From Candidatus Bathyarchaeota archaeon (GTDB taxonomy: Archaea > Thermoproteota > Bathyarchaeia > Bathyarchaeales > Bathycorpusculaceae), in the NCBI GenBank assembly GCA_963780185.1, contig CAWABA010000009.1:1-64000 (forward strand): a stretch of DNA of 64,000 nucleotides. Reading direction: 5' to 3'. A model generated the notes under the pieces. It was not told the DNA's origin. It was given only the letters and a program-made list of their open reading frames with translations, and searched no databases. This document shows, one piece after another, positions 23,756-37,825 of the stretch. The first letter of the stretch is position 1; every line of letters begins with the position of its first letter. The position numbers and the translations under genes are program-made.

Positions 23756-24017
23756 CTCTACAACTCCACAATTAAGCTACATTGGCATAAAATGGCTATT
23801 AAACATGTGTGGCTGTAGCCCCCCAGCGACAAAGCGGTGTTCTGTTTGAACGTCCGAAATTAGATTCGGAACCTAAAACTGGCGAGATTTTTAATGAAAG
23901 CTGTGTCTGTAACCAAGTTACTCTTCAAAGCAAACTCCGCTAACCAGTGTTGTTGGGGCTTCACAGTCACACAAGCTTAATTCTGCCATTGACGGCTTAG
24001 CGTTAGATGTGAAAGAA

Positions 24018-24155
24018 ATGTCGAAGACCAAGAAAAAAGTTGAAAGTGCCGCTGAAAAAACTGGAGAAGCAGTCGGCAAAGGCATCAAAAGAGGCGCTAA
24101 AGCCGTAGATGAATTTGGGAAGGGCATAAAGAAAGAATTTAAGAAAAAAGAATAA
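24018..24155 (+). CDS. Small Lys-rich amphipathic protein (45 aa)
   Basis: MSKTKKKVESAAEKTGEAVGKGIKRGAKAVDEFGKGIKKEFKKKE. Confidence 0.6.
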   Translation: MSKTKKKVESAAEKTGEAVGKGIKRGAKAVDEFGKGIKKEFKKKE

Positions 24156-24336
24156 AGATGACCAAATTTTCCCTTCTAAAACAAAAGAAAAAATTGCCCT
24201 TTTTTACAAGAAATCGCAAGTTTTCAAGTTGTGAATTGAAGCTTAAAACTCCTTTTGAGTGGTTCGACACAGTCACATAGTCTTAAGAGTATCTTGTCTT
24301 CTCCTTTTTCTCTCTTCGTATCGGGAGGTGAATGGT

Positions 24337-24492
24337 TTGTCTCGAACTGCACGTCCAAACATGGAGCCACGAATGACTGATGACGGCAAATACATCTGCG
24401 ACCAAGACAACAAAACCTTCAAAACACGCGAAGAATACGACAAGCACCTATCCGAAGCCCACATGAAAAGCAGCGGCAGCAAAGGCTGGTAA
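24337..24492 (+). CDS. Small C2H2-like zinc-finger protein (second Cys replaced by Asp)
   Basis: KYICDQDNKTFKTREEYDKHLSEAH; GGAGGTGA RBS before TTG. Confidence 0.65.
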   Translation: MSRTARPNMEPRMTDDGKYICDQDNKTFKTREEYDKHLSEAHMKSSGSKGW

Positions 24493-24630
24493 CCAACCAG
24501 ACAGGTTGTAGACCCGTTTCTTTCCTTTTTTTCATTGCTCCGACAGATAAAATTAGCAGAAAACTATGAATGCAACACGGCAAAACGGCTTAGCCTTCAC
24601 GGGATAATGTTTATTTCAATGTTAAAGAAA

Positions 24631-24640
24631 TGTTTATATG
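24631..24640 (+). promoter_or_regulatory. Probable TATA box of the 16S rRNA promoter
   Basis: TTTATATG preceded by a purine-rich BRE-like AAAGAAA, about 300 nt upstream of the 16S gene. Confidence 0.5.
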
Positions 24641-24943
24641 GAATACATGCGCTTCTGTTAGAATTCAGCTATAATTGCTAGCCCCGCAATTTTCACATGG
24701 CGGCGGCTCAACCCGTACCGAAACGGCGATTGCCTTGCAGGGATGATGGTGTTGGCCTCCAGTTGCGGGGACACGTATGTAGACCTGACTAATTGCTCAG
24801 TTAGGTCTGAATTGGGCTTTGACGTATATGAGTGGAATGTTTTTCCCTCCAAATCCAGTTAGGCACAAGAATGCGAAAAAAAATTCGTACCACATCAAAA
24901 AACAAGATAGTAAGATCCGCAGAAATCATTACGGAGTGTCACA

Positions 24944-26436
<1,493 letters not shown>

Positions 26437-26605
26437 AAGTAAAAAGCATTCGAATGCTTAATTGGAGGAGCAAGGAAAGCATGGAAACCCACAAAATATG
26501 CGTCAAAGCCCAATAACATTAGCAATATAGCTCAAATGGGTTAATTCTTTATTTCTTTTAACTAAACTCTTTTAAGAATCTCATAAATTACTTGACTCGA
26601 TCTTC

Positions 26606-27533
26606 ATGAGTCAAAAAGCCTTCATATCAGATGCCGACGCGGCGCTGTCAAATCTTATCTGGAACGGCATAAAAGATGAACCCGTAGCAAAAAACATTAT
26701 CTCAAGCCAAGAGCAAATTTCATTTTCCTCTCCCAAAGACGCTACTGCTCAAAAAACCAGAAAACTGTCCATATTTCTGCACAATACAACTGAAGAAACA
26801 ACGGCAAGAAAGGTGCCTCTGACGTTGGATTCCAAAGAAAATACAATCTCACCGACTTTTGCCCTGCACTATCTCGTCACACCAACCACTGGAAACGACA
26901 AAGACAACCATGCTTTGCTTGAAGAAATAATTCAGGTCCTTTTAGCCACGCCGGCGATTGCCGATGCAAGTAAAGAAAACAAAGTCGGGTTTGCTGTGAA
27001 GATAGATTCGCTTTCCCTAGAAGAGCTAACCAAACTGTGGACAGCATTGGGCATCCCCCTTAGGCTTTCCGTGATTATAACCGTTACATCGGCTCAGCCA
27101 GGAATTGACTCCCAGGCACAAATAAAAAGCGGCGCCGGAGCACCCCAAGCAGCAGCTCAAACAGTTGTGCGCGACGAACCCGTTATCCAACTCTACCAAG
27201 CCGTGCTCAAAACTTTCGCGGAGCAATCTGACGGCTGGAAAAACCGCAACTTTGCCGTCAGACAATGGGTAATCCAAGACTTCAAGAAAAACACCAACAT
27301 GGCCGTGGAGGAAATGCGCAGTGACCTCAACAGTTTAGGTGACAAGCTGCAAAGACACGAGCCGACAGAGCAGTTCATAAAGTCCCTGAACGCGTTGGCT
27401 GGATACTACAAACACCAGCTTGAGCAGACTGACGGGAATGCAGAAAGTGTCTCGCAACCAGAATGAAAACATTGAAACATTAAACACCTGGATCAAAGAC
27501 ATCGAGAACTTACAAGAAGCTTTGGAAAAATAG
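26606..27533 (+). CDS. DUF4255/Pvc16-N-like domain protein (frameshift near 3' end)
   Basis: ISFSSP..LSIFLH..LHYLVTP..HALLEEIIQVL..SLEELTKLWTALGIPLRLSV. Confidence 0.7.
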
Positions 27534-27623
27534 ACCTAAAATCCTCAATAATTAGCGCTCAATAACTGGAATTATAAATCTCTCTGTTACTGAATTTTGG
27601 GTTGATGTAGTCCCATTTTTTAA

Positions 27624-28022
27624 CTAAAGCCAGATTCGTTTGGTTTCTTTTATGGCATCAAAGTGTGGGTCGTCCGAGATTACTTTGGCTTGGTTCTTTA
27701 TGGCGATGGCGGCGATAATGCAATCGCCCACGGGTAGGTTTTTGTGAGTGCTTTTAAGTATGCCCGCGTCTTTTGCGATGGAAGACGTTAAGCCCTCTAT
27801 TCTTAATCCGCTAGCATTGATTGAGCGATAAGTTATTTCTGCGCTTTCTTTACCCCTCTTTGAGCAAATGAACTGAATTGTTTCAAGGAGTACTATAGTT
27901 GGGATTATCCCATTAGCACTTTGCCTTAACTCCCTCATCTTTTGGCTTGTTTTCTGGCGCATTTTTGGGTCTTGTGAATAAAGGTGTTCTATAAAAAAGC
28001 GTGTGTCGAGCACTTCTTTCAA
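27624..28022 (-). CDS. vapC: PIN-domain (VapC-like) toxin
   Basis: VLDTRFFI..TIVLLE..GDCIIAAIA..ISDDPHF. Confidence 0.88.
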   Translation of the reverse strand: MKEVLDTRFFIEHLYSQDPKMRQKTSQKMRELRQSANGIIPTIVLLETIQFICSKRGKESAEITYRSINASGLRIEGLTSSIAKDAGILKSTHKNLPVGDCIIAAIAIKNQAKVISDDPHFDAIKETKRIWL

Positions 28023-28025
28023 GGG

Positions 28026-28249
28026 CTAGTATTCCTCGCGTAACTTGTCTAATTCTTTCTTCAGCTCAGCAACGTCTGCATCCCCGGCGAAAATCCCCGC
28101 AAGATCCTCTAGTTTAGGCACTCTTTTGAAAGTTACTGCTTGGTCAACTTTTTCTACTGACAAAACATCGCCTTCTTTTATTCCAAGTTCCTTTCTGATC
28201 CGTGCGGGAATGGTGGTTTGCCCTTTTTAGTAACCTTGACTGTTTGCAT
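28026..28249 (-). CDS. AbrB/MazE-family antitoxin (one-base frameshift)
   Basis: MQTVKVTKKG[fs]QTTIPARIRKELGIKEGDVL..DVAELKKELDKLREEY directly upstream of the PIN gene. Confidence 0.85.
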
Positions 28250-28322
28250 AGGAATATCCTTACTTTAATATGAAAGTACTACGCTCTTAAGACTTCCTAC
28301 AAAAAGGAAAAGTAATAAACGT

Positions 28323-28826
28323 TTATTCGGTCAGGGTCTTCGTGTAGTCCCAGATTTTGTCGCTTACCCAATGCAACGTTTTTACAATTGGGCCCTTTTT
28401 GGTTTGCCTTGCTGTTTCAGCGTCGAGGAGGCTTTCGCCGATTGCCAAGGATTTTCCAAACTTCACGTCAACGATGAGAACCAGATCGCCTTTGCTGAAG
28501 TTGCCTTCTATGCGTACTATGCCTGGAGCCATGACGGTTGCGCCTTTGCAGACATACGGTACGGCGCCCATGTCGACCACGATTTTGGGTGCGCCAACTA
28601 TGTATTCGGTGAAGTGGAGTGTGGGTAATATTTTGGTGTCGGATTTGAATAGGATGGGTTTTCCTTCGATGAGGTAAATTTCGCCGACTTCGGACTCAAC
28701 AACTTCCACTATGGCTTTGCTGCCGAAAAGTGCCTCCAAGTCAAGTTTCAAGTTTGCCGAGGCTTCGACGAGAACCTGTTTTGCCTCTTTGTTTTTTAAT
28801 GGGTATCTTCGCTGTTTCGTTGGCAT
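28323..28826 (-). CDS. DUF1947/PUA RNA-binding protein (MCT-1/Tma20-like)
   Basis: ILPTL..IVVDMGAVPYVCKGATVMAPGIV..LHWVSDKIW. Confidence 0.88.
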   Translation of the reverse strand: MPTKQRRYPLKNKEAKQVLVEASANLKLDLEALFGSKAIVEVVESEVGEIYLIEGKPILFKSDTKILPTLHFTEYIVGAPKIVVDMGAVPYVCKGATVMAPGIVRIEGNFSKGDLVLIVDVKFGKSLAIGESLLDAETARQTKKGPIVKTLHWVSDKIWDYTKTLTE

Positions 28827-28973
28827 GCTGCTCGCTACCGTATTCTGCAAGCTAAAATTTAACTTTACCCCAAAATCCACCGTCAAAGTTGCGTCGCTTT
28901 TTTATATTAGCCTCAACCTCTAATTGCAACTAATCAATCCCGGAAAACAAGCTTAGAATTGAGGACCAAAAAT

Positions 28974-29555
28974 ATGGCTAAATGTTATGGTTGCGGCAAA
29001 GAATCCAAGGGCGGCATGCCGACCGCGAAAATAGACGGCGACGAACGATCTTACTGTGCTGACTGTTACTGGAAAGTTGAGAAGGAATACAAAGCCAAGC
29101 GGAACTGCGAGGAATGCAGCTACTTCTGCGAGGAAACCTGCAAGAAGAAAAACGGCAAAAAACTCAAGGCGACGACGGTTGGCTACAACATGTATTTTGA
29201 TGAGGCGGAAAAATGCGGCGACTTCAGCACCGACAAAGATGTTGCCGTGACGGAAATCCGAAAGCTTGAGGCGCAGGGCAAATTCGAGGAGGCAGCCGCT
29301 GGATACGACCGATGGAGTATGGATGACGAAGCGGAAGCGGCTCGGCGAAAGATGCCTAAGCCACGCAGCAACGTCGACGCCAAAGTCAAAGACCTGGCTA
29401 AAAAGGGGGAAACTTTAACTTACTATTGCCCACACTGTGGGGCGCAGCTGAAGATCGGGGCGAAAGCAACTCAGATCCCGAAGTTCTGCACCAACTGCAA
29501 AGGCGATTTGACGCTTCTAGATTTAAGCAAATTCATAGAGGAACATGAGGCTTAG
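28974..29555 (+). CDS. Multi-zinc-ribbon hypothetical protein
   Basis: CYGC, CADC, CEEC..C, CPHC and CTNC motifs. Confidence 0.7.
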   Translation: MAKCYGCGKESKGGMPTAKIDGDERSYCADCYWKVEKEYKAKRNCEECSYFCEETCKKKNGKKLKATTVGYNMYFDEAEKCGDFSTDKDVAVTEIRKLEAQGKFEEAAAGYDRWSMDDEAEAARRKMPKPRSNVDAKVKDLAKKGETLTYYCPHCGAQLKIGAKATQIPKFCTNCKGDLTLLDLSKFIEEHEA

Positions 29556-29765
29556 GCAGTTTTAGGATGTGCTGACCCTCCGTTCGGCGCTTAAGCACTT
29601 TGGCGGGCACCTTTCTTTTTCAGACTCATGTTCTTTACGCTCTCCCTTCTCCTCCTCAAAATATCTCCAAACCCCACAATCCAATAAAATTCACAATAGA
29701 CAGGGATATTCTTGTTTCAGGAAAGGTTTATTTCATACTCAACGCTAAGACGCAATTGACCTAAA

Positions 29766-30434
29766 ATGCTTGGGGCTCTTCTCGACCTCGAAGGAACACT
29801 TGTTGAGTCTCCGACCAAGAACTCGGCGATTATGTTAGCGTACAGGTCAAAACTATTTCCTACATTTGAAGAGTTGGGAATCCCTTCTTACATCATTGAT
29901 GTCACAGCTCAAACAGCGGTCGTCTATAACAATGCAATGGATTATGCTACAAGAAACTTTTCTTTTCAAGAGCAAAGAAAGTATCATATTGGTATCAACG
30001 AGTTTATGGTTGAACATGAGGTTGGATGGGCACAGGAATCAAAACCCTATCCAGAAGCACAAATTTTGCTTGAGCAACTGAAAAATTTTGGCTTGAGACT
30101 AGGGTTAGTTACCAATACAAGCGAAAAAGCTGCGGAAATTATGCTTTGTGCGGGAGGACTAAAGGGTTACTTCGATACTGTTGTCACCCGTACGAACGTC
30201 AAAAAGATTAAACCTGACCCAGAAAGCATCTCGTTAGCCTTAAGCAACCTTGGATTGAAAGACTTTATCTTTGTAGGCGATTCAGAACTAGACGCTCTGG
30301 CAGCCAAAGCGCTTTGCGGCACTTCAATAATATTAAAGAGCAATCTAGCAAAAAGGACTTTTTTTGCCAATTATTTTGTGAATTCGCTGTCCGAAGTATA
30401 CCCTGCTCTTTTAGAAATAATGAGGAAAACTTGA
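29766..30434 (+). CDS. HAD-superfamily hydrolase (phosphatase-like)
   Basis: Motif I DLEGTL, motif II VTN, KPDP and VGDSELD. Confidence 0.88.
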   Translation: MLGALLDLEGTLVESPTKNSAIMLAYRSKLFPTFEELGIPSYIIDVTAQTAVVYNNAMDYATRNFSFQEQRKYHIGINEFMVEHEVGWAQESKPYPEAQILLEQLKNFGLRLGLVTNTSEKAAEIMLCAGGLKGYFDTVVTRTNVKKIKPDPESISLALSNLGLKDFIFVGDSELDALAAKALCGTSIILKSNLAKRTFFANYFVNSLSEVYPALLEIMRKT

Positions 30435-30438
30435 ACTT

Positions 30439-32658
30439 TCAAGTTTTTTTCTTCCAACGCCCTCTTCGGTACGAGGGTTCCCAACTATACAAACCTCGGG
30501 CCTCTTTAGGAAATATCGGGTGCAAAATATCTTTTTTTGCAATGTTTCCCAAATGCCACGTGAGAAACAGGGATTTAACTAAAAGTTCAAGTGAACCAAC
30601 TACTCCTTGTTTATCAGTTTCTAAAACGAATGTCTTAAAATACTTCTCGAAGCGGCTGGACAAAAAATCAACTAACTCGTTATCTTTGGGCGTTTTTATT
30701 ATTATGACGCTTCTATTTGGGCGTCCGTACAAATTAATATATCGGCCATGCGTGAAATTTTTCATTTCGCAAATTTCAATTGTACATAATCCTCCCTCAA
30801 CGATTTTTGACTCAAAATCAACAAGTGCTGGTAGACCCCAACCTCTTCCAAAACTTACAATGTGCATTTTATCAATGCTGCCAACTTCAGAGGCGAACGC
30901 TGAAGCCATCGAGTTCATCTCACGTGTTGCGGAATTCACCATATTTCTTAGATTGCTCTCGGAGAAAAAATCTTCAAGAGGCTCAATTTCTGTTTGGGGA
31001 ACAAACAAGCCACATAGCGCTGATACTTGTGATAATAAGCCTATGATTGAGACAAAATCTCTTTCTTCTGCTTGTATGAAGAAGTTCTTCCAGCTATTTT
31101 GGTTCGCCATTTCGGCAAGTTTTGAAGTTTTATTTCCTGTTAAAACAGCACAATTCGTATGTTCAAGTTCAATTGCATGAAGAGCAGCACCCAAAATATC
31201 AGTATTTCCTCCACCATGCGAGATAAACCAAACGGTAGCATCTTTATCAACATTCTCAAGACCTTCAAACTCGTAAGGCGTCATGGCTTTAGCCAGCTTT
31301 CCCCACGAATGTAAATACAGTGCTTCAGTAAACGCTGCTGCAGTGTATGATCCACCAGACCCTATTATTAAGGCTCTTGACGAATTGAAGTTTGATGCAA
31401 TCGATCGATAGGTTTTTCCAATTTCAAAACTCGAACGCATTGTCCAAGGGATTCTTGATAGACTCTCGAGACTTTTTCGAGAATACGTTGGCTTTATTCC
31501 TAAGATTTTCGGCTGAGTGATATTCGTAGCTTTTTTGGATTGTACTGCACCACAGATTTTGCAAACACCAAAGTTTACCAAACGGTAGGGCTCAACAATG
31601 GGTTTGGGTAGTCCAATATTCGGGCTAAAAGAGTTCCCAGATGATTTTGTATCAATAATAATTCTAGCTGTTTCCAGAATCTCGCTGGGCGTGAGACGCT
31701 GATTCAAAAAAACCCTTTGAAGTGATCTTGCACCATACAACGTACAATTTAAGGAAGATAAGGCTCTTGCAATATCCACTACTTGCATAAAACTCTCGAA
31801 TGTTTCATCAAATCCTTGCTCTATGAGCAGTTTGGAAGCGGCAATGCCGAAAAAGATGTCCCCTGAGCCAGCACAGTCGCGAATAGAATCGCATTTAATC
31901 GCTGGACTGTGAAAAATCTGTGTTTTACCTCTTAGATTAGCATACCCATAAGATCCCGAATCGCCATTGGTAACAAGAAGATATCGAGTATCTGGGTACA
32001 GTTCTCTCCACTTCAAAACGGCGCTATCCTCGGAACTGCCACTTAACTTAACAAATGTTTTATGATTCACTTTGACAAGATCTGATAATCTCAATATACT
32101 TTCGAGAGTTTTATTATGCTTCCCAAATGATGTAAAACTAAGATCATACGCAATTTTTCCGCTTTTTTGCTTGACTAGGCCAGCCAATAGCAAAGTTGCT
32201 TCATTTGATCTATCCAGAATCAAAAGATCAGTTTTTTCTGCGAGCGCTCTTGTTCTATTTGAGACGTCATTGCTTGAAATTTGATATTCTCTATCAAAAT
32301 TACTCTTGCATCTTGGGCAATGCATTTCGAATTTATGACTACCGTTCGGAAAGATAAGATGTGCGAATTGTCGCGTAAATCTGAGATCCTTTTGATTGCC
32401 TCTTTCGACAAGATTATCGTAATTTACACTGAATAATCTAAAATCCTCTTTTACGATTCTTTCTCCTAAATCATTTCCAATCAAACTGAAGACGAATGGT
32501 TTGTTTCCAAGCAATGACATTAAACAGAGAGTATTTGCAACAGTTCCTCCTCCCGCACTACCGAGATATGTAAGATCAGATTGGGTTTCTTTAAGGGTTG
32601 ACGATAAGAAGATGTGATCGACGGCGACTAACCCTGACCCCAGAACTATTTTAGCCAT
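30439..32658 (-). CDS. PfkB/ribokinase-family kinase fused to a double SIS (GlmS/FrlB-like) domain
   Basis: N-terminal GSGLVAVDH, AGGGTVAN, DLVKVN, VTNG and DCAGSGDIF; C-terminal IGSGGSYTAA, ISHGGGNTDI and ESKIVEGG..NFTHGR; two CxxC pairs. Confidence 0.85.
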   Translation of the reverse strand: MAKIVLGSGLVAVDHIFLSSTLKETQSDLTYLGSAGGGTVANTLCLMSLLGNKPFVFSLIGNDLGERIVKEDFRLFSVNYDNLVERGNQKDLRFTRQFAHLIFPNGSHKFEMHCPRCKSNFDREYQISSNDVSNRTRALAEKTDLLILDRSNEATLLLAGLVKQKSGKIAYDLSFTSFGKHNKTLESILRLSDLVKVNHKTFVKLSGSSEDSAVLKWRELYPDTRYLLVTNGDSGSYGYANLRGKTQIFHSPAIKCDSIRDCAGSGDIFFGIAASKLLIEQGFDETFESFMQVVDIARALSSLNCTLYGARSLQRVFLNQRLTPSEILETARIIIDTKSSGNSFSPNIGLPKPIVEPYRLVNFGVCKICGAVQSKKATNITQPKILGIKPTYSRKSLESLSRIPWTMRSSFEIGKTYRSIASNFNSSRALIIGSGGSYTAAAFTEALYLHSWGKLAKAMTPYEFEGLENVDKDATVWFISHGGGNTDILGAALHAIELEHTNCAVLTGNKTSKLAEMANQNSWKNFFIQAEERDFVSIIGLLSQVSALCGLFVPQTEIEPLEDFFSESNLRNMVNSATREMNSMASAFASEVGSIDKMHIVSFGRGWGLPALVDFESKIVEGGLCTIEICEMKNFTHGRYINLYGRPNRSVIIIKTPKDNELVDFLSSRFEKYFKTFVLETDKQGVVGSLELLVKSLFLTWHLGNIAKKDILHPIFPKEARGLYSWEPSYRRGRWKKKT

Positions 32659-33557
32659 TAAGTGCACTTCCGAAGGACCATAATCCCTTGCGTTCCCACA
32701 TTTGAATTTATAGGTATTTCGTTTTTTGGAGTTAGGAAATGCGAGCCTGTTAAGGCGCCTGCTATTACCGTAGTCAAGAAACCATTTGTACTTCCTCCAG
32801 GCGTCAAGACTGGGCGACTTATTGATACACTAGGACTGGGAATGGCTTTTAGAGTCCTGTAAAGCTGATCAAACGCTTGATCCGGACACAAGGAGTCCAG
32901 GTAAATGATATTTCTCGTTCTGGTTCTGTACTTTTCCAGCATTTGATAATGATTTGTTAAAGTGCGCTCTCCCCATTGAATGGAGCGGTTTGGAAATTCC
33001 AAAAGGGGAAACACATCGTAAGGATCCAAGTTTTCAGCTGCTTGTTCAAGGGCAGTTCGGTCGCGTAATAGCGCGGGGTACCACCATACGGGAACAGAAT
33101 TAGACGACTGAGCCACATAGGAAACGCCGAAAGGATCTGCATGCCATAATTCAAAAGGGGCGTCTTTTTGAGACACTTCCCCCTCAGGGATTACTATTCC
33201 CAATGCGATATTCTTTCCTTTCATTATATGGTCTTTCCAATTGATGATGATTGAAGCAATGCACTCAGTTGGGAGATTAGAAGGGTCAAACCAGTAGAGT
33301 ATAGGGCTTCCATCAAGATCATCGACTACCGAATCCAGAGCTTTAGAAGAGTTTTTCAGACAAACGCAAGCTATCTCAATACTTTTGCAGTTATATGGTA
33401 ACGGATTATATGTATTAGTTGGATTATCCAGATGTTTTGTTTGGTGCGGATTGATTATCAATTTGCCTTCGAGGGCTGACCTGTTAAAAGGGGGTGAATT
33501 GCACTCTAAGTAGTCCATTGTTATGATTACCTTGGGAGAGATGTTTCCAGCTTGCAT
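32658..33557 (-). CDS. Uncharacterised protein co-transcribed with the PRTase-like and PfkB-SIS genes
   Basis: 299-aa ORF; its stop overlaps the next start (TAATG) and it begins 4 bp after the upstream gene. Confidence 0.75.
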   Translation of the reverse strand: MQAGNISPKVIITMDYLECNSPPFNRSALEGKLIINPHQTKHLDNPTNTYNPLPYNCKSIEIACVCLKNSSKALDSVVDDLDGSPILYWFDPSNLPTECIASIIINWKDHIMKGKNIALGIVIPEGEVSQKDAPFELWHADPFGVSYVAQSSNSVPVWWYPALLRDRTALEQAAENLDPYDVFPLLEFPNRSIQWGERTLTNHYQMLEKYRTRTRNIIYLDSLCPDQAFDQLYRTLKAIPSPSVSISRPVLTPGGSTNGFLTTVIAGALTGSHFLTPKNEIPINSNVGTQGIMVLRKCT

Positions 33558-33561
33558 TCAA

Positions 33562-34632
33562 TTACCTCGCAGGAGTGTGGTGCACCACTCTCGGGAAGAG
33601 AGGATACCAGTCATTTTCATGCCATAATAAGTACAAAGAATCATTTGGACAATTTGATTGAAGAATTAACGTCAAACCGGCACTCCCGTATCCATATTTA
33701 GCGCCCCCGCCAACTCTTGTGTGTTCATCTTCCTTAAATCTGTCGTAGTACTTATCACATAATTTTGCTACTGATTTGTTGACGTCAATTCCTGTTCCAT
33801 CTGCATTAGAAATACAAAAAGAGATTGGCAACCAACATGTAGGGTATATTTTTACAAAAGGAACTGAGCACTCGCTTAGATATTTTGGTAGTCTGTTATC
33901 AAGATTTTTCTCTGAAACTGAAGTTTGGATGAATGGGCAGTAGTAAATTTTGTCTTCTTTTATGAAATCCTTCCAAAGACCTTGAAAACGAGGAATTTTT
34001 CCCGTCCATACTCCATTCTTATTCCGTAACGCTGTGTCTCCGCTTGCTGATATTTGGTCAATCAAAAAGATGTTTTTGTGAGGAGGTAGCTCTTTCATAG
34101 AGGTTTTGTCTCGTTTATAATATTCAACGAAATTCTCTTTACTGAATGAATGATATCTCATCGCGTAACGGCGAAAGAAATCAAAGTGCATATCATCAGC
34201 GCAAGCAACGAAAATACTTCTTCTCAATTCTGCATCTAAATTCAAGCTCCGGGTGGCCATGTAATCATTCCAATTATTGATTGAGGCATTTACGGAGTTT
34301 TGTAAAATGCAATACCGCGCGTTTTCAAAGGTTCTGATAGCTAATTGCTTCATTTCATACGTACTAATAAATTTGAGAGACTTCACTATTTCCATTGCTG
34401 CCTGTCTGTCTTCCTTGTCGAAATTATCAAGCCATTTAAGAAGTCTGCTTTCAAATGTTTCCCCTGGAAATGAATGATCATATCTGTCATACTTTCTACG
34501 ACTCAAAAAGAGTATTCTTGCTGTTTCGTCTGCAGAAATATCTACCCCTAAATAGGTTAAAGCTAGCCGCAATTGCTCTGTCTGGCTCTCAAAAGAACTA
34601 AAGGTATATGGGCGATATTCTGTAATAGTCAA
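33562..34632 (-). CDS. Phosphoribosyltransferase-like protein (PRTase-CE-like, conflict-system type)
   Basis: Y..FESRLLKWLDNF, PRPP-loop-like IFLIDQISASGDT, C-terminal YGYG..LILQSNCPNDSLYLLW..WYPLFPR. Confidence 0.72.
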   Translation of the reverse strand: MTITEYRPYTFSSFESQTEQLRLALTYLGVDISADETARILFLSRRKYDRYDHSFPGETFESRLLKWLDNFDKEDRQAAMEIVKSLKFISTYEMKQLAIRTFENARYCILQNSVNASINNWNDYMATRSLNLDAELRRSIFVACADDMHFDFFRRYAMRYHSFSKENFVEYYKRDKTSMKELPPHKNIFLIDQISASGDTALRNKNGVWTGKIPRFQGLWKDFIKEDKIYYCPFIQTSVSEKNLDNRLPKYLSECSVPFVKIYPTCWLPISFCISNADGTGIDVNKSVAKLCDKYYDRFKEDEHTRVGGGAKYGYGSAGLTLILQSNCPNDSLYLLWHENDWYPLFPRVVHHTPAR

Positions 34633-35064
34633 CTACCTTGGACGAGATATGGATGGTTTTTGCTTATATGTTTAATTAATCTTCCTCAATTCTCAACCAA
34701 GCCTACTCTATTAAACATCTTGCAAGTCGCAGTTTTTCAGCCCATCCCAAAGGTTTCAACCCGCAAAAATGTTCAAGCTCTATCCAAGGAAGCACCCTAA
34801 AACGCAAGATCTACTTGCGAAGCTGCAATTTTGCGTTGCTTTTCTGGAAAAGGTTGTCGAACATGCGCATGCGGGCTTAATCAAATTGATTGAAGATCGG
34901 GTACCTGTCGTTGCCGGTCGGTTACTTGAATTGAGATTGATGCTCCGCCTGAGATGTCTTTTTGCTTTACTTTATATTGTTTCACTAACAGCGAAAATGG
35001 GCGCGTGTCAGAAAAATAAGCCATTAGTAATTTGCGCTGTAAGTGTTTGGTTCCTCAAAGCCAG

Positions 35065-35340
35065 TCGCCCATAACTGACAATGTCATCGCTGAATTTCAA
35101 CATGGTATTGTCGCAGAAAGTCGCATCCGCCCATCCCGCAACATAGAACACGACCAGACACGACCAGACCTACAAGCGGATTGGGCTCGTTTTCAAAAAA
35201 GCAACTTGAAACGCAACAGGAAAAAGTCTCAACTTTCCCCAAAACAAAAGTCGCAACGAAAAAGTTAACTTCCGCAAAAACCAGCAGAACCAACCCAAAC
35301 CGCAGCAACCAAAAAAAACCGAAACCGCAAGAATGCAACA
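35065..35340 (+). repeat. Copy of a dispersed intergenic repeat (related to 16085-16330)
   Basis: Same blocks as 16085-16330; both regions translate to KSQLSPKQKSQ in the ORF track. Confidence 0.7.
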
Positions 35341-35422
35341 CCAATTTTTTTTGGTTCTCCGAAACCCATAAATGGGGAGAGCTGAAGTATAGAAGAGATA
35401 ACGGAATCATGAGGATTACACC

Positions 35423-35650
35423 ATGAGCGAAATGACAACCGAAATCCTTGAACAAAACCTCAGTAAAGTCGTACTTGTACGGCTTAAAGGCGGAAAAAGC
35501 CTCCGGGGAAGACTAAAGGGTTTCGACCAACACTTAAACCTCGTCCTAGAAGAAACAGAAGACACAACCCAAGTTGAAAACCAAAAGAAACTGGGACTAA
35601 TAATCGTCCGCGGAGACAACGTAGTCCTAATATCACCACCGCCTAGGTGA
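35423..35650 (+). CDS. Sm-like (LSm/SmAP) RNA-binding protein
   Basis: [35 protein letters not shown]; upstream of L37e. Confidence 0.95.
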
Positions 35651-35655
35651 CCACG

Positions 35656-35844
35656 ATGGGAAAAGGAACTCCATCAATGGGCAAGCGCCAAGGCAAAACC
35701 GTCCACATAAAATGCCGACGCTGCGGAAGACGAGCATACCACGTACGGCACAAACGTTGCGCGGCATGCGGCTTCGGCGAAACCACAAAGATGCGGCATT
35801 ACACCTGGATGCGCAAGACTCTTCAAAGAGTAAGAGTCGTCTAA
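35656..35844 (+). CDS. rpl37e: 50S ribosomal protein L37e
   Basis: [32 protein letters not shown]. Confidence 0.95.
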
Positions 35845-35957
35845 CCCAACTTTCAACCATCTGATTCTTAAACTAAAGCAGCACTGTTTTTGAATTCAAA
35901 TTTAGATAGCATAAGCTAAGCTAGAACATCACAAAAAATAAAATAAGGTGGATAAGC

Positions 35958-36569
35958 TCAGTTTGGCGAGTTATAGTAGCCTTTGTCTACTTTGACAAAG
36001 ATCAAGGGACCTTTACTCTGAGCCATCTCGCGGGCTTTCCGAAGCGCCTCGTTAACTATGGTGAAAACCTGTTCACGCTCGTTTAGTTCCTGCACGCGTT
36101 TTTCTCCGAGTTCCATCTTTAGCAAATTCTCCGCCAATATTTCTGTGCCGCAGATTTCCCCGTTCTTAAGCAGGGTTGTAATGATGATTTCCTGAAGCTC
36201 CTGTTTGTGGTCAATCCTCTTCCACAGAGGCTCGGCGTTGGATAGCGTTTTGGAAATCTTGTTCCATCGAGTAGCGTTCTGGTCGCCTATCAGCAGTTTG
36301 ACGCGTTCCTTCCACTTCTTGAACCAAATTCCAATCCAAACAGTTAAGAACGCCTCCAGCTCCGAGGAATCCTCTTTAAAAACTGCCTCCAGCCTTTCAA
36401 CCAATTCGCATTGGCTTGCTTCTTTCCCAATCAAGTTCCAATGAAACTTGAGGAAGTTTGTGAAGTCTTGACAAGCCACCTGCAAGACTTTGCGGTCAGA
36501 CCCTATAACGTCAAGAGCTGGATCCGCATCCTTCAATTTCTCCCCTATCATCAATTCAACAAAGTTCAT
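35958..36569 (-). CDS. Hypothetical protein
   Basis: 203-aa helical-looking ORF with no recognised motif. Confidence 0.7.
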   Translation of the reverse strand: MNFVELMIGEKLKDADPALDVIGSDRKVLQVACQDFTNFLKFHWNLIGKEASQCELVERLEAVFKEDSSELEAFLTVWIGIWFKKWKERVKLLIGDQNATRWNKISKTLSNAEPLWKRIDHKQELQEIIITTLLKNGEICGTEILAENLLKMELGEKRVQELNEREQVFTIVNEALRKAREMAQSKGPLIFVKVDKGYYNSPN

Positions 36570-36702: not shown

Positions 36703-37359
36703 TCATCCGATGAAGTTTGGAAGCGCCGTAACATCGTTTAAAATCAAGTCTGGCTCTTCTTTAGCAAGTTCACTCGATTGATAGAGCCCCGATAAAACGG
36801 CAACAGTACGTGCTCCAGCAGCTTTTCCAGCCCGCACATCATTAACCGAATCACCAGCGATGACGCAGTCGCTTATATCAACATCCAACGTTCTAACACA
36901 GTCCAAGAGCGCTTCAGGTGAAGGTTTAGGCTTAGTCGTGTCCAGAGCCGTTACTACGTAGCTAAAATATCTTGATATTCCAAAGAACTCAAGCTCTTTT
37001 CTGATGGACTGCTTCGGCACATACCGCATGGTTATGAGGGCAAGTTTCCTTTTTTCCGCCAACGCTTCAAGCGCGGCTTTAACATCCGGCATTAGCCTAG
37101 TTTTGTGCCGGGTAACTGCATAGAAGGTTTTCAAGTATGTGCTCAGGAACCTTTTGGTTTCACCGTATGTGATGTCATCTATCGGGAAACCCTGCTCAAG
37201 TCTCCGAGGGATTTCCAAAGCCGTTTCATCTGCTGCTGGCATTTGACCGATGGCTCGGAACGACACCCTTGCCGCTTCCAAGTAGGCTTCAGTAGAGTCA
37301 ACTATGGTGCCGTCCAAATCCAAGAAAATAGCTTTTGCTTTGAAGCCGTTGTCGAGCAT
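36703..37359 (-). CDS. HAD hydrolase, phosphoglycolate-phosphatase-like
   Basis: DLDGTIVDS, KPKPSP, GDSVNDVRAGKAAG. Confidence 0.9.
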   Translation of the reverse strand: MLDNGFKAKAIFLDLDGTIVDSTEAYLEAARVSFRAIGQMPAADETALEIPRRLEQGFPIDDITYGETKRFLSTYLKTFYAVTRHKTRLMPDVKAALEALAEKRKLALITMRYVPKQSIRKELEFFGISRYFSYVVTALDTTKPKPSPEALLDCVRTLDVDISDCVIAGDSVNDVRAGKAAGARTVAVLSGLYQSSELAKEEPDLILNDVTALPNFIG

Positions 37360-37825
37360 TTCTCTCGGCTCTTCACTGTGCACTTTATTTCTTAAAGGTT
37401 TCTTATGTTCCGCCAAGAAACAACGTCTCGGCACCAATTCTGAAACGGGGGCTATTCTGAAGATGACGTTTTGGTCGAAGACATTTCCTTCAAAAAGAAT
37501 TTCCGCTAATCCGTTTAGGAGGAGTTTTGGGTTCGTGTTTCTTTTCCGCGGATGAATGACAGTATCCCACTAGCACCAATATGGCTTATGGAGGCGTAGA
37601 AGGAGTTGTCTACTTCTTTTTCTTAATTGTTGGTCGAAGGTTAATTTATCAATACGCCGCATAGGAGATTCAGGTTTTAGAGGCAGAATCAGTTTTCGAA
37701 GAGAGAGCATCGGGCTCTGACCGATACATCGCGTCTGATGGTTAATGTTTGGAAAGGGTCCAGATAACTAATTATAATTCGCAGAACCTAATTTGAAGAC
37801 AAACCTGCTCCAGCTGTGTTTCCAA

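Follow-up and report, generated by a model that had tools for sequence, protein, structure and literature searches.

The 64,000-nt stretch of a Candidatus Bathyarchaeota archaeon contig analysed here (the window) holds, at 29766-34632, a compact block of four genes encoding a phosphoribosyltransferase-like (PRTase) protein, a protein that we call P3, a PfkB kinase fused to a double-SIS module, and a stand-alone HAD phosphatase (Table 1). A first-pass annotation, made from the letters of the sequence, had proposed the block as an antiviral or toxin-antidote module of a composition without precedent. We find that the four genes recur together in metagenomes and appear to be a compact form of a five-gene cassette carried by both bacteria and archaea. 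The claimed gene layout was present as described. On the minus strand, 4 bp separate the PRTase stop from the P3 ATG, and the TAA of P3 overlaps the PfkB-SIS ATG at 32658 in a TAATG; the HAD gene converges on them, with 4 bp between its stop (30432-30434) and that of PfkB-SIS (30439-30441). In the open reading frame (ORF) listing, the PfkB-SIS frame extends upstream to a GTG at 32667, giving 742 amino acids (aa). The block is AT-richer than its neighbours, as had been claimed: its GC content of 0.400 compares with a window mean of 0.459 (standard deviation 0.028, 4867-bp windows) and is the lowest in the window, with 0.4% of 4867-bp windows as low. A domain scan of the neighbours likewise agreed that the block lies between core genes, with a PUA protein on one side and LSM and L37e on the other; a 198-aa zinc-ribbon gene stands between the PUA gene and the block.

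Table 1 Features of the four-gene block and its upstream spacer.
Feature	Position	Strand	Details
PRTase-CE family phosphoribosyltransferase-like protein	33562..34632	-	356 aa, TTG start; PF24390
P3, putative divergent CARF6-family protein	32658..33557	-	299 aa; PADLOC CARF6 models and hhalign
PfkB kinase fused to double-SIS module	30439..32658	-	739 aa from ATG; Pfam
PfkB (ribokinase-like) kinase domain	31723..32625	-	Alignment with four- and five-gene PfkB
Double-SIS module, GlmS-isomerase / NagB-II / FrlB type	30463..31470	-	Homology and PDB profile matches
Stand-alone HAD-IA type phosphatase	29766..30434	+	222 aa; Pfam HAD_2
Spacer upstream of PRTase gene	34633..35245		Part of inserted segment

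The PRTase belongs to the PRTase-CE family, as the first-pass annotation had recognised, scoring 95.7 bits against PF24390 (cut-off 27) over model positions 3-253 of 253. It matched the PADLOC PRTase_III-A models, which denote retron type III-A effectors (E = 1e-19), and it had no PADLOC ShosT match and no PDB relative by sequence search. The IDQISASGDT motif is present, forming part of a phosphoribosyl pyrophosphate (PRPP)-type loop (L-I-D-Q-I-S-A-S-G, residues 190-198), as is a C-terminal G-x14-P-N ... L-F-P-R motif that reads GY..NCPN..LW..W.PLFPR, as quoted in the annotation. A G-x14-P-N motif has been described for retron PRTases (PMC12746101). For the PfkB-SIS fusion, Pfam placed PfkB at residues 15-315 (E = 2e-13) and SIS at 428-522 (E = 5e-7), and the whole protein had no PDB match by sequence search. 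The HAD protein matched Pfam HAD_2 (E = 5e-21). NCBIfam contributed generic similarities only, including weak ones to ribose-1-phosphate kinase and sugar phosphatases.

P3, which the annotation had listed as an unknown partner, matched no Pfam or NCBIfam family. In PADLOC it matched three CARF6 models (best PDLC01910, E = 2.6e-9), and the PDLC01910 model was matched by 26 of 41 P3 family members. Relatives are rare: 5.8 billion clustered proteins yielded 20, and 1.84 billion representatives yielded 47. The weakest matches to the P3 profile (P0061-P0066) are full-length CARF6 proteins, with E values down to 1e-111. Aligning the P3 family with true CARF6 proteins in hhalign gave a probability of 97.9% (E = 5.7e-13, 211 columns), with P3 about 80 residues the shorter (299 versus ~380 aa). 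The PADLOC matches and the profile-profile score therefore identify P3, at the level of sequence, as a short and divergent relative within the CARF6 family. Neither P3 nor CARF6 had a PDB relative by sequence, and the ESM Atlas offered nothing usable for P3 and unnamed clusters only for CARF6. A TAL-effector repeat match to P3 was rejected as a repeat artefact, and an initial scan of genome contigs with P3 gave no match.

Scanning metagenomes with P3 yielded nine loci (P3 identity 31-56%), in all of which the order PRTase, P3, PfkB-SIS was kept as far as the contigs reach. Across these loci the cassette proteins share 31-63% identity and the ORFs are intact; the PfkB-SIS fusion is full-length in 6/6 loci whose contig spans the gene. 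A HAD homologue adjoins the cassette in 7/7 loci with enough flank, where it lies downstream in convergent orientation (L005, L006), downstream and co-directional (L007, L008) or upstream (L009, L011, L012). Because the HAD gene shifts around the cassette yet never leaves it, its presence is good evidence of functional linkage. Recurrent co-occurrence in gene neighbourhoods, which the annotation had named as a check on its proposal, was thus seen at every locus, and recurrence in 9/9 independent loci places the linkage beyond chance. At L005, the neighbours of the cassette include HD, M78 peptidase and transposase genes.

The cassette is accessory in this lineage. Its P3 family occurred in 1 of 401 sampled genomes of the class, the window's own, with no match in 24 same-genus and 16 same-order genomes. 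The distance between the PUA and Sm genes is ~0.8-0.9 kb in four of five same-genus genomes versus 6.5 kb in the window, and in the fifth genome (G217) a segment is inverted, with one breakpoint at this position. DNA similarity to same-genus relatives stops at ~28866 (29555 where the zinc-ribbon gene is present) and picks up again at ~35246-35369. Among flanking direct repeats and att-like sites, only short repeats at chance level were found. A spacer ORF at 34769-35074 (101 aa) had no Pfam match, the 790-bp upstream spacer contained no ORF or RNA conserved in other loci, and Rfam searched over 24000-36000 returned 16S ribosomal RNA (rRNA) only. We read the four genes as one horizontally acquired accessory cassette inserted at a variable site. 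The earlier claim of a single accessory island agrees with the empty site in relatives, and the presence/absence comparison among related Bathyarchaeia that it had recommended found the P3 family in 0/24 and 0/16 close relatives.

In G217 the inverted segment runs from the Sm gene to an RPA-like gene (L104, G217:C7:5500-14500), and one of its breakpoints falls right after the zinc-ribbon gene, at what is the cassette insertion junction in the window. PF24390 was found in 4/401 sampled genomes of the class. In two further genomes of the class, a short (~270 aa) PRTase-CE gene stands beside a gene of 311-332 aa (L110, 7412-9177; L111, 5341-7172), with the other cassette genes missing there; this pair may represent a two-gene, retron-like architecture.

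A wider setting for the block came from a CARF6 scan of species-representative genomes, which found 205 loci, 80 of which were analysed. These hold a five-gene cassette in the order SIS-HAD (~640 aa), PRTase-CE (~370), ORC-CDC6-like ATPase (PF24389, ~640), CARF6 (~380) and PfkB (~365). All five genes are present in 70/80 loci, and the other 10 miss only genes beyond the contig end; the sole rearranged locus of the 80 has SIS-HAD between CARF6 and PfkB (L043, 5459-12078). The ATPase, in which a G-x-G-K-T-S Walker A motif and a D-D pair are retained, is present in 79/80 loci, the remaining one being cut by the contig end, so that the annotation was right in stating that PRTase-CE relatives usually sit with such an ATPase. 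Bacterial carriers include Myxococcota, Planctomycetota, Bacteroidota, Acidobacteriota, Cyanobacteriota and Chloroflexota, and archaeal ones include Methanoregula, Methanosarcina, Nitrosopumilus and one Bathyarchaeia genome. Chitinophaga cymbidii KCTC 23738, Olivibacter oleidegradans, Corallococcus sicarius and Tautonia sociabilis are among the carriers available in culture. No neighbour recurs in the flanks (132 Pfam families in 139 proteins), where the commonest families are ResIII (4), Phage_integrase (3), SNF2 (3), N6_Mtase (2), Mrr_cat (2), DDE transposase (2) and BrxL (1); the 25 commonest flanking families include no transporter and no cas family. One viral contig (L112, 18-5126) has four of the genes, in cassette order and up to the contig edge: PRTase-CE, ORC-CDC6-like ATPase, CARF6 and PfkB.

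The window PRTase matches the PRTase gene in 74/80 of the five-gene loci at 28-30% identity, and the PfkB and SIS halves of the window fusion match the separate PfkB and SIS-HAD genes in 78/80. In both forms, the gene immediately ahead of PfkB, and overlapping it, is of CARF6 type. The two are joined in P0067, a single 740-aa record with CARF6 at residues 11-323 and PfkB at 393-709, which may be either a real fusion or an artefact of sequencing or gene calling.

We aligned 8 four-gene and 70 five-gene PRTases and built a tree from them. About 40 strongly conserved positions are common to both groups, including the loop Asp192 and S197-G198, and the C-terminal G314, N327, P329, N330 and F346-P347-R348 are conserved in four- and five-gene proteins alike. 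The PRPP loop reads D-Q in 8/8 four-gene PRTases and D-D in the five-gene ones. In the tree, one very long branch separates the two forms (Shimodaira–Hasegawa-like approximate likelihood ratio test (SH-aLRT) support 100), and bacterial and archaeal phyla are mixed among the five-gene sequences; being unrooted, it is silent on which form is older.

The kinase and the SIS module are also related between the two forms. When 7 four-gene and 77 five-gene PfkB sequences were aligned, the domain proved to retain the GG motif and the active-site G-x-G-D (D270), and the window protein has a four-cysteine insert (C117, C120, C379 and C382). This idiosyncratic Cys4 insert (C-x2-C ... C-x2-C) is common to the PfkB of both forms, together with H-x-F and G-x-G-D. 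The entire double-SIS module is homologous to the N-terminal half of the five-gene SIS-HAD, with a G-S-G-G-S phosphate loop and a D-x-E-S-K-x-x-E ... H-G-R pattern that are invariant or nearly so. Against the PDB, the SIS profile matched the NagB-II glucosamine-6-phosphate deaminase 8eol (E = 1.3e-8, 300 positions aligned), with the K...E...H-G catalytic pattern in register; its other best matches were the GlmS isomerase domain and the putative fructose-aminoacid-6-phosphate deglycase 3eua, and phosphoheptose isomerase reached an E value of 0.46 only. The clade into which the module falls points to a substrate of aminosugar-phosphate or ketosamine-phosphate type. For the phosphatases, motif I of the stand-alone HAD is D-L-E-G-T (DxE, not DxD) in 7/7 sequences that cover it, the window included, and the fused HAD of the five-gene cassette is Cof-type, with DxDGT in 67/68; tblastn found no match between the two (E <= 1e-3).

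In sum, four of the five protein families of the larger cassette are present in the window (PRTase-CE, a CARF6 relative, Cys4-insert PfkB and double-SIS), and a HAD phosphatase belongs to the set in both. The forms differ in several respects. An ATPase lies between PRTase and CARF6 in the five-gene cassette, whereas in the window PRTase and P3 adjoin across the 4-bp gap; SIS is fused to HAD there and to PfkB here; the HAD is of the Cof-type DxDGT kind there and a stand-alone HAD_2-type DxE protein here; the PRPP loop has DD there and DQ here, with the very long PRTase branch between them; and CARF6 is ~80 residues longer than P3. The absence of the ATPase, which the annotation had pointed out at the locus, extends to the whole genome, in which PF24389 had no match (93% complete). 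We interpret the window cassette as a compact sister form of the five-gene cassette, ATPase-less and re-fused.

Could it instead be a decaying remnant, non-functional after loss of the ATPase? The missing ATPase, the D to Q change in the PRPP loop and the ~80 residues by which P3 falls short of CARF6 might suggest so, but the same architecture with intact ORFs recurs in nine loci at 31-63% identity, many alignment columns are invariant, the D to Q and DxE changes are shared by the whole clade instead of being scattered, and the clade splits deeply from the five-gene form. Conservation thus largely refutes decay, which we regard as very improbable.

The claim of a composition without precedent did not hold, since SIS, HAD, PfkB and a CARF6 relative are standard parts of the PRTase-CE/ATPase cassette. 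As models exist for PF24389, PF24390 and CARF6, parts of the cassette are already catalogued. We found no description of either cassette in the full-text papers searched, and a published note on CARF6 neighbourhoods may exist elsewhere. The window locus is therefore a new form of a catalogued cassette for which we found no described mechanism. At least 205 species-representative genomes, bacterial and archaeal, carry the five-gene cassette, and two or three of its parts have catalogue entries; the window offers a natural minimal form of it, and the alternative fusions and the loss of the ATPase constrain which parts cooperate and in what order.

As for function, we consider it about an even chance (roughly 50%) that the four-gene cassette is a conflict (defence-type) system built on phosphoribose or sugar-phosphate chemistry. 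By family membership, the PRTase, CARF6 and ORC-CDC6-like proteins all point that way, and the patchy spread across bacteria and archaea, the low-GC insertion, and the restriction and mobile genes among the five-gene flanks speak for defence. The PRTase would be the likeliest effector, by analogy with Retron-Eco11, ShosT and Ophion OpnC, acting through PRPP drain or an N-phosphoribosyl product; in Retron-Eco11, PRTase activation lowered PRPP by ~50% (PMC12746101). PfkB, SIS and HAD would successively process a single sugar-phosphate or aminosugar-like metabolite, with SIS in the middle, given that its fusion partner is HAD in one form and PfkB in the other, and this line would either make the substrate of the PRTase or clear its product. 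The SIS-HAD and PfkB-SIS fusions also lend plausibility to the annotation's idea that the enzymes act on one sugar-phosphate moiety. The CARF6-like protein would bind a small ligand and gate the kinase whose gene it precedes; such regulation is suggested by the constant placement of CARF6 before PfkB, with overlap, and by the single protein P0067. In the five-gene form the ATPase would serve as the invader sensor, and the four-gene form, having none, would be triggered otherwise or be constitutive.

Several observations weigh against a defence role. All parts are metabolic-type enzymes with intact catalytic residues, the catalytic motifs being retained in PRTase, PfkB, SIS and HAD, and no nuclease, pore, protease or NADase is among them. 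The CARF label of P3 and CARF6 derives from PADLOC model names. PADLOC, one of the tools that the annotation had nominated, returned no system-level match, in line with the expectation that the locus would match no already named system, and has no model for the PfkB, SIS-HAD and ATPase parts. The five-gene flanks also include housekeeping genes (ACCA, DNA polymerase III alpha, SRP54); the defence and mobile share, read from the 25 commonest families, is modest. Only one viral contig carried the five-gene type and none the P3 family. Finally, with glutamine in the loop of the four-gene PRTases, their chemistry may differ or catalysis may be weakened.

The main rival explanation is that the cassette serves specialised metabolism or repair as a salvage, catabolic or deglycation route. 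The kinase would act on a ketosamine, aminosugar or riboside, the double-SIS module would isomerise or deaminate the product, the HAD protein would dephosphorylate it, and the PRTase would recycle the base or amine with PRPP. A PfkB kinase and a double-SIS protein make up the fructoselysine kinase and deglycase pairing, and the same pairing here, with NagB-II, GlmS and a deglycase-like protein as the best SIS matches in the PDB and weak NCBIfam similarity to ribose-1-phosphate kinase and sugar phosphatases, suits such a route, as do the intact motifs of all four enzymes and the absence of a classical killing domain. However, the sugar-catabolism operon with transporters that the annotation had set against its own proposal was not seen, there being no recurring transporter or sugar-catabolic neighbour in the five-gene flanks; the main form has an ORC-CDC6-like ATPase and CARF6, needless for a catabolic operon; the distribution is very patchy (1/401 genomes of the class); and the PRTase family is known from retron effectors, not from salvage enzymes. 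We therefore hold a metabolic route to be a serious but doubtful alternative.

An accessory, inserted cassette with tightly coupled genes might also be an addiction-type toxin-antidote module kept by selfish persistence, in which the PRTase is a toxin (through PRPP drain or aberrant nucleotides) and PfkB-SIS and HAD undo its product. PRTase toxins exist: ShosT combines PRTase with pyrophosphatase activity and disrupts purine metabolism (PMC11961720). Yet the window PRTase had no ShosT match, the Retron-Eco11 PRTase alone is not toxic (PMC12746101), and four or five conserved genes exceed what such a module usually needs, which leaves this explanation improbable. We rate slightly lower still, as quite improbable, the biosynthesis of a nucleoside-like secondary metabolite or signal, directed against competitors or used for signalling. 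The enzymes look competent for it, and a PRTase with a HAD phosphatase is the proposed source of a nucleoside-like metabolite in the Ter system (PMC7824862); nevertheless, the linked genes include no exporter, no resistance gene and no tailoring enzyme, and the ATPase and CARF6 of the main form speak for sensing rather than production.

Returning to defence, a more specific and bolder version would make both cassettes a new kind of metabolite-based immunity. In it, the PRTase would write an N-phosphoribosyl adduct or signal from PRPP, the kinase-deglycase-phosphatase line would build or erase it, and the CARF6-type domain would sense a sugar-phosphate or nucleotide-like ligand, not cyclic oligoadenylate. 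We put this forward tentatively, as an unlikely though far from negligible possibility. If true, the four-gene form would be proof that the enzymatic core needs no DNA-sensing ATPase to work. If the cassettes are defensive at all, PRTase effectors, so far mainly those of retrons and ShosTA, would be tied to sugar-phosphate enzymes and a CARF-like sensor outside CRISPR; if they are metabolic, they would caution against taking PRTase-CE and CARF6 labels as signs of immunity.

The surroundings of the block hold further genes. A complete archaeal 16S rRNA gene lies at 24944-26436 (+; 1472 bits), ~3.3 kb from the cassette, and explains a GC peak at 24.5-26.5 kb. Directly after it, 26606-27466 (+) encodes a protein of 286 aa that has a Pvc16 N-terminal domain (E = 1e-24), whose family has links to contractile injection or phage-tail-like systems. 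A PIN-domain (VapC-like) gene at 27624-28022 (-) adjoins the PUA gene, 1.7 kb from the cassette; at the same place in G217 (L104, 273-922) a PIN gene follows an overlapping 83-aa ORF, likely as a toxin-antitoxin pair. A second HAD gene (HAD_2 and Hydrolase_like) stands 2 kb from the cassette at 36703-37437 (-) and, being kept in G217 as well, is core and outside the island.

Set beside known systems, the cassette has partial likenesses to several. With the CARF sensors of type III CRISPR-Cas it shares, by label, the relation of P3 to the PADLOC CARF6 proteins; P3 differs in having no fused effector domain, and the Cas10 families Csm1/Cmr2 (TIGR02578, TIGR02577) had no match in the window's genome, where controls matched. 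With FrlD/FrlB, and with NagB-II and GlmS, it shares a PfkB kinase and a double-SIS module, as in the Frl pairing, but here the kinase and SIS form one polypeptide, linked to PRTase-CE and a CARF6-like protein, and the pair sits in an accessory island, not in a sugar-utilisation operon. Retron type III-A (Retron-Eco11) has in common with it the PF24390 family, the PADLOC models, the PRPP-type loop and the G-x14-P-N motif. Unlike the retron, the cassette has no matching RNA family, and no reverse transcriptase domain was found in its four genes or in the ten neighbours scanned; its PRTase is linked instead to three sugar-phosphate enzymes and the CARF6-like protein. In ShosTA the PRTase is likewise essential to defence, ShosT disturbing purine metabolism (PMC11961720), whereas the partner there is ShosA and the window PRTase is without a ShosT match. 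Ophion also depends on a PRTase, OpnC, for protection against jumbo phage, and its partners are instead a radical-SAM and a PHP protein (bioRxiv 10.1101/2025.09.30.679545).

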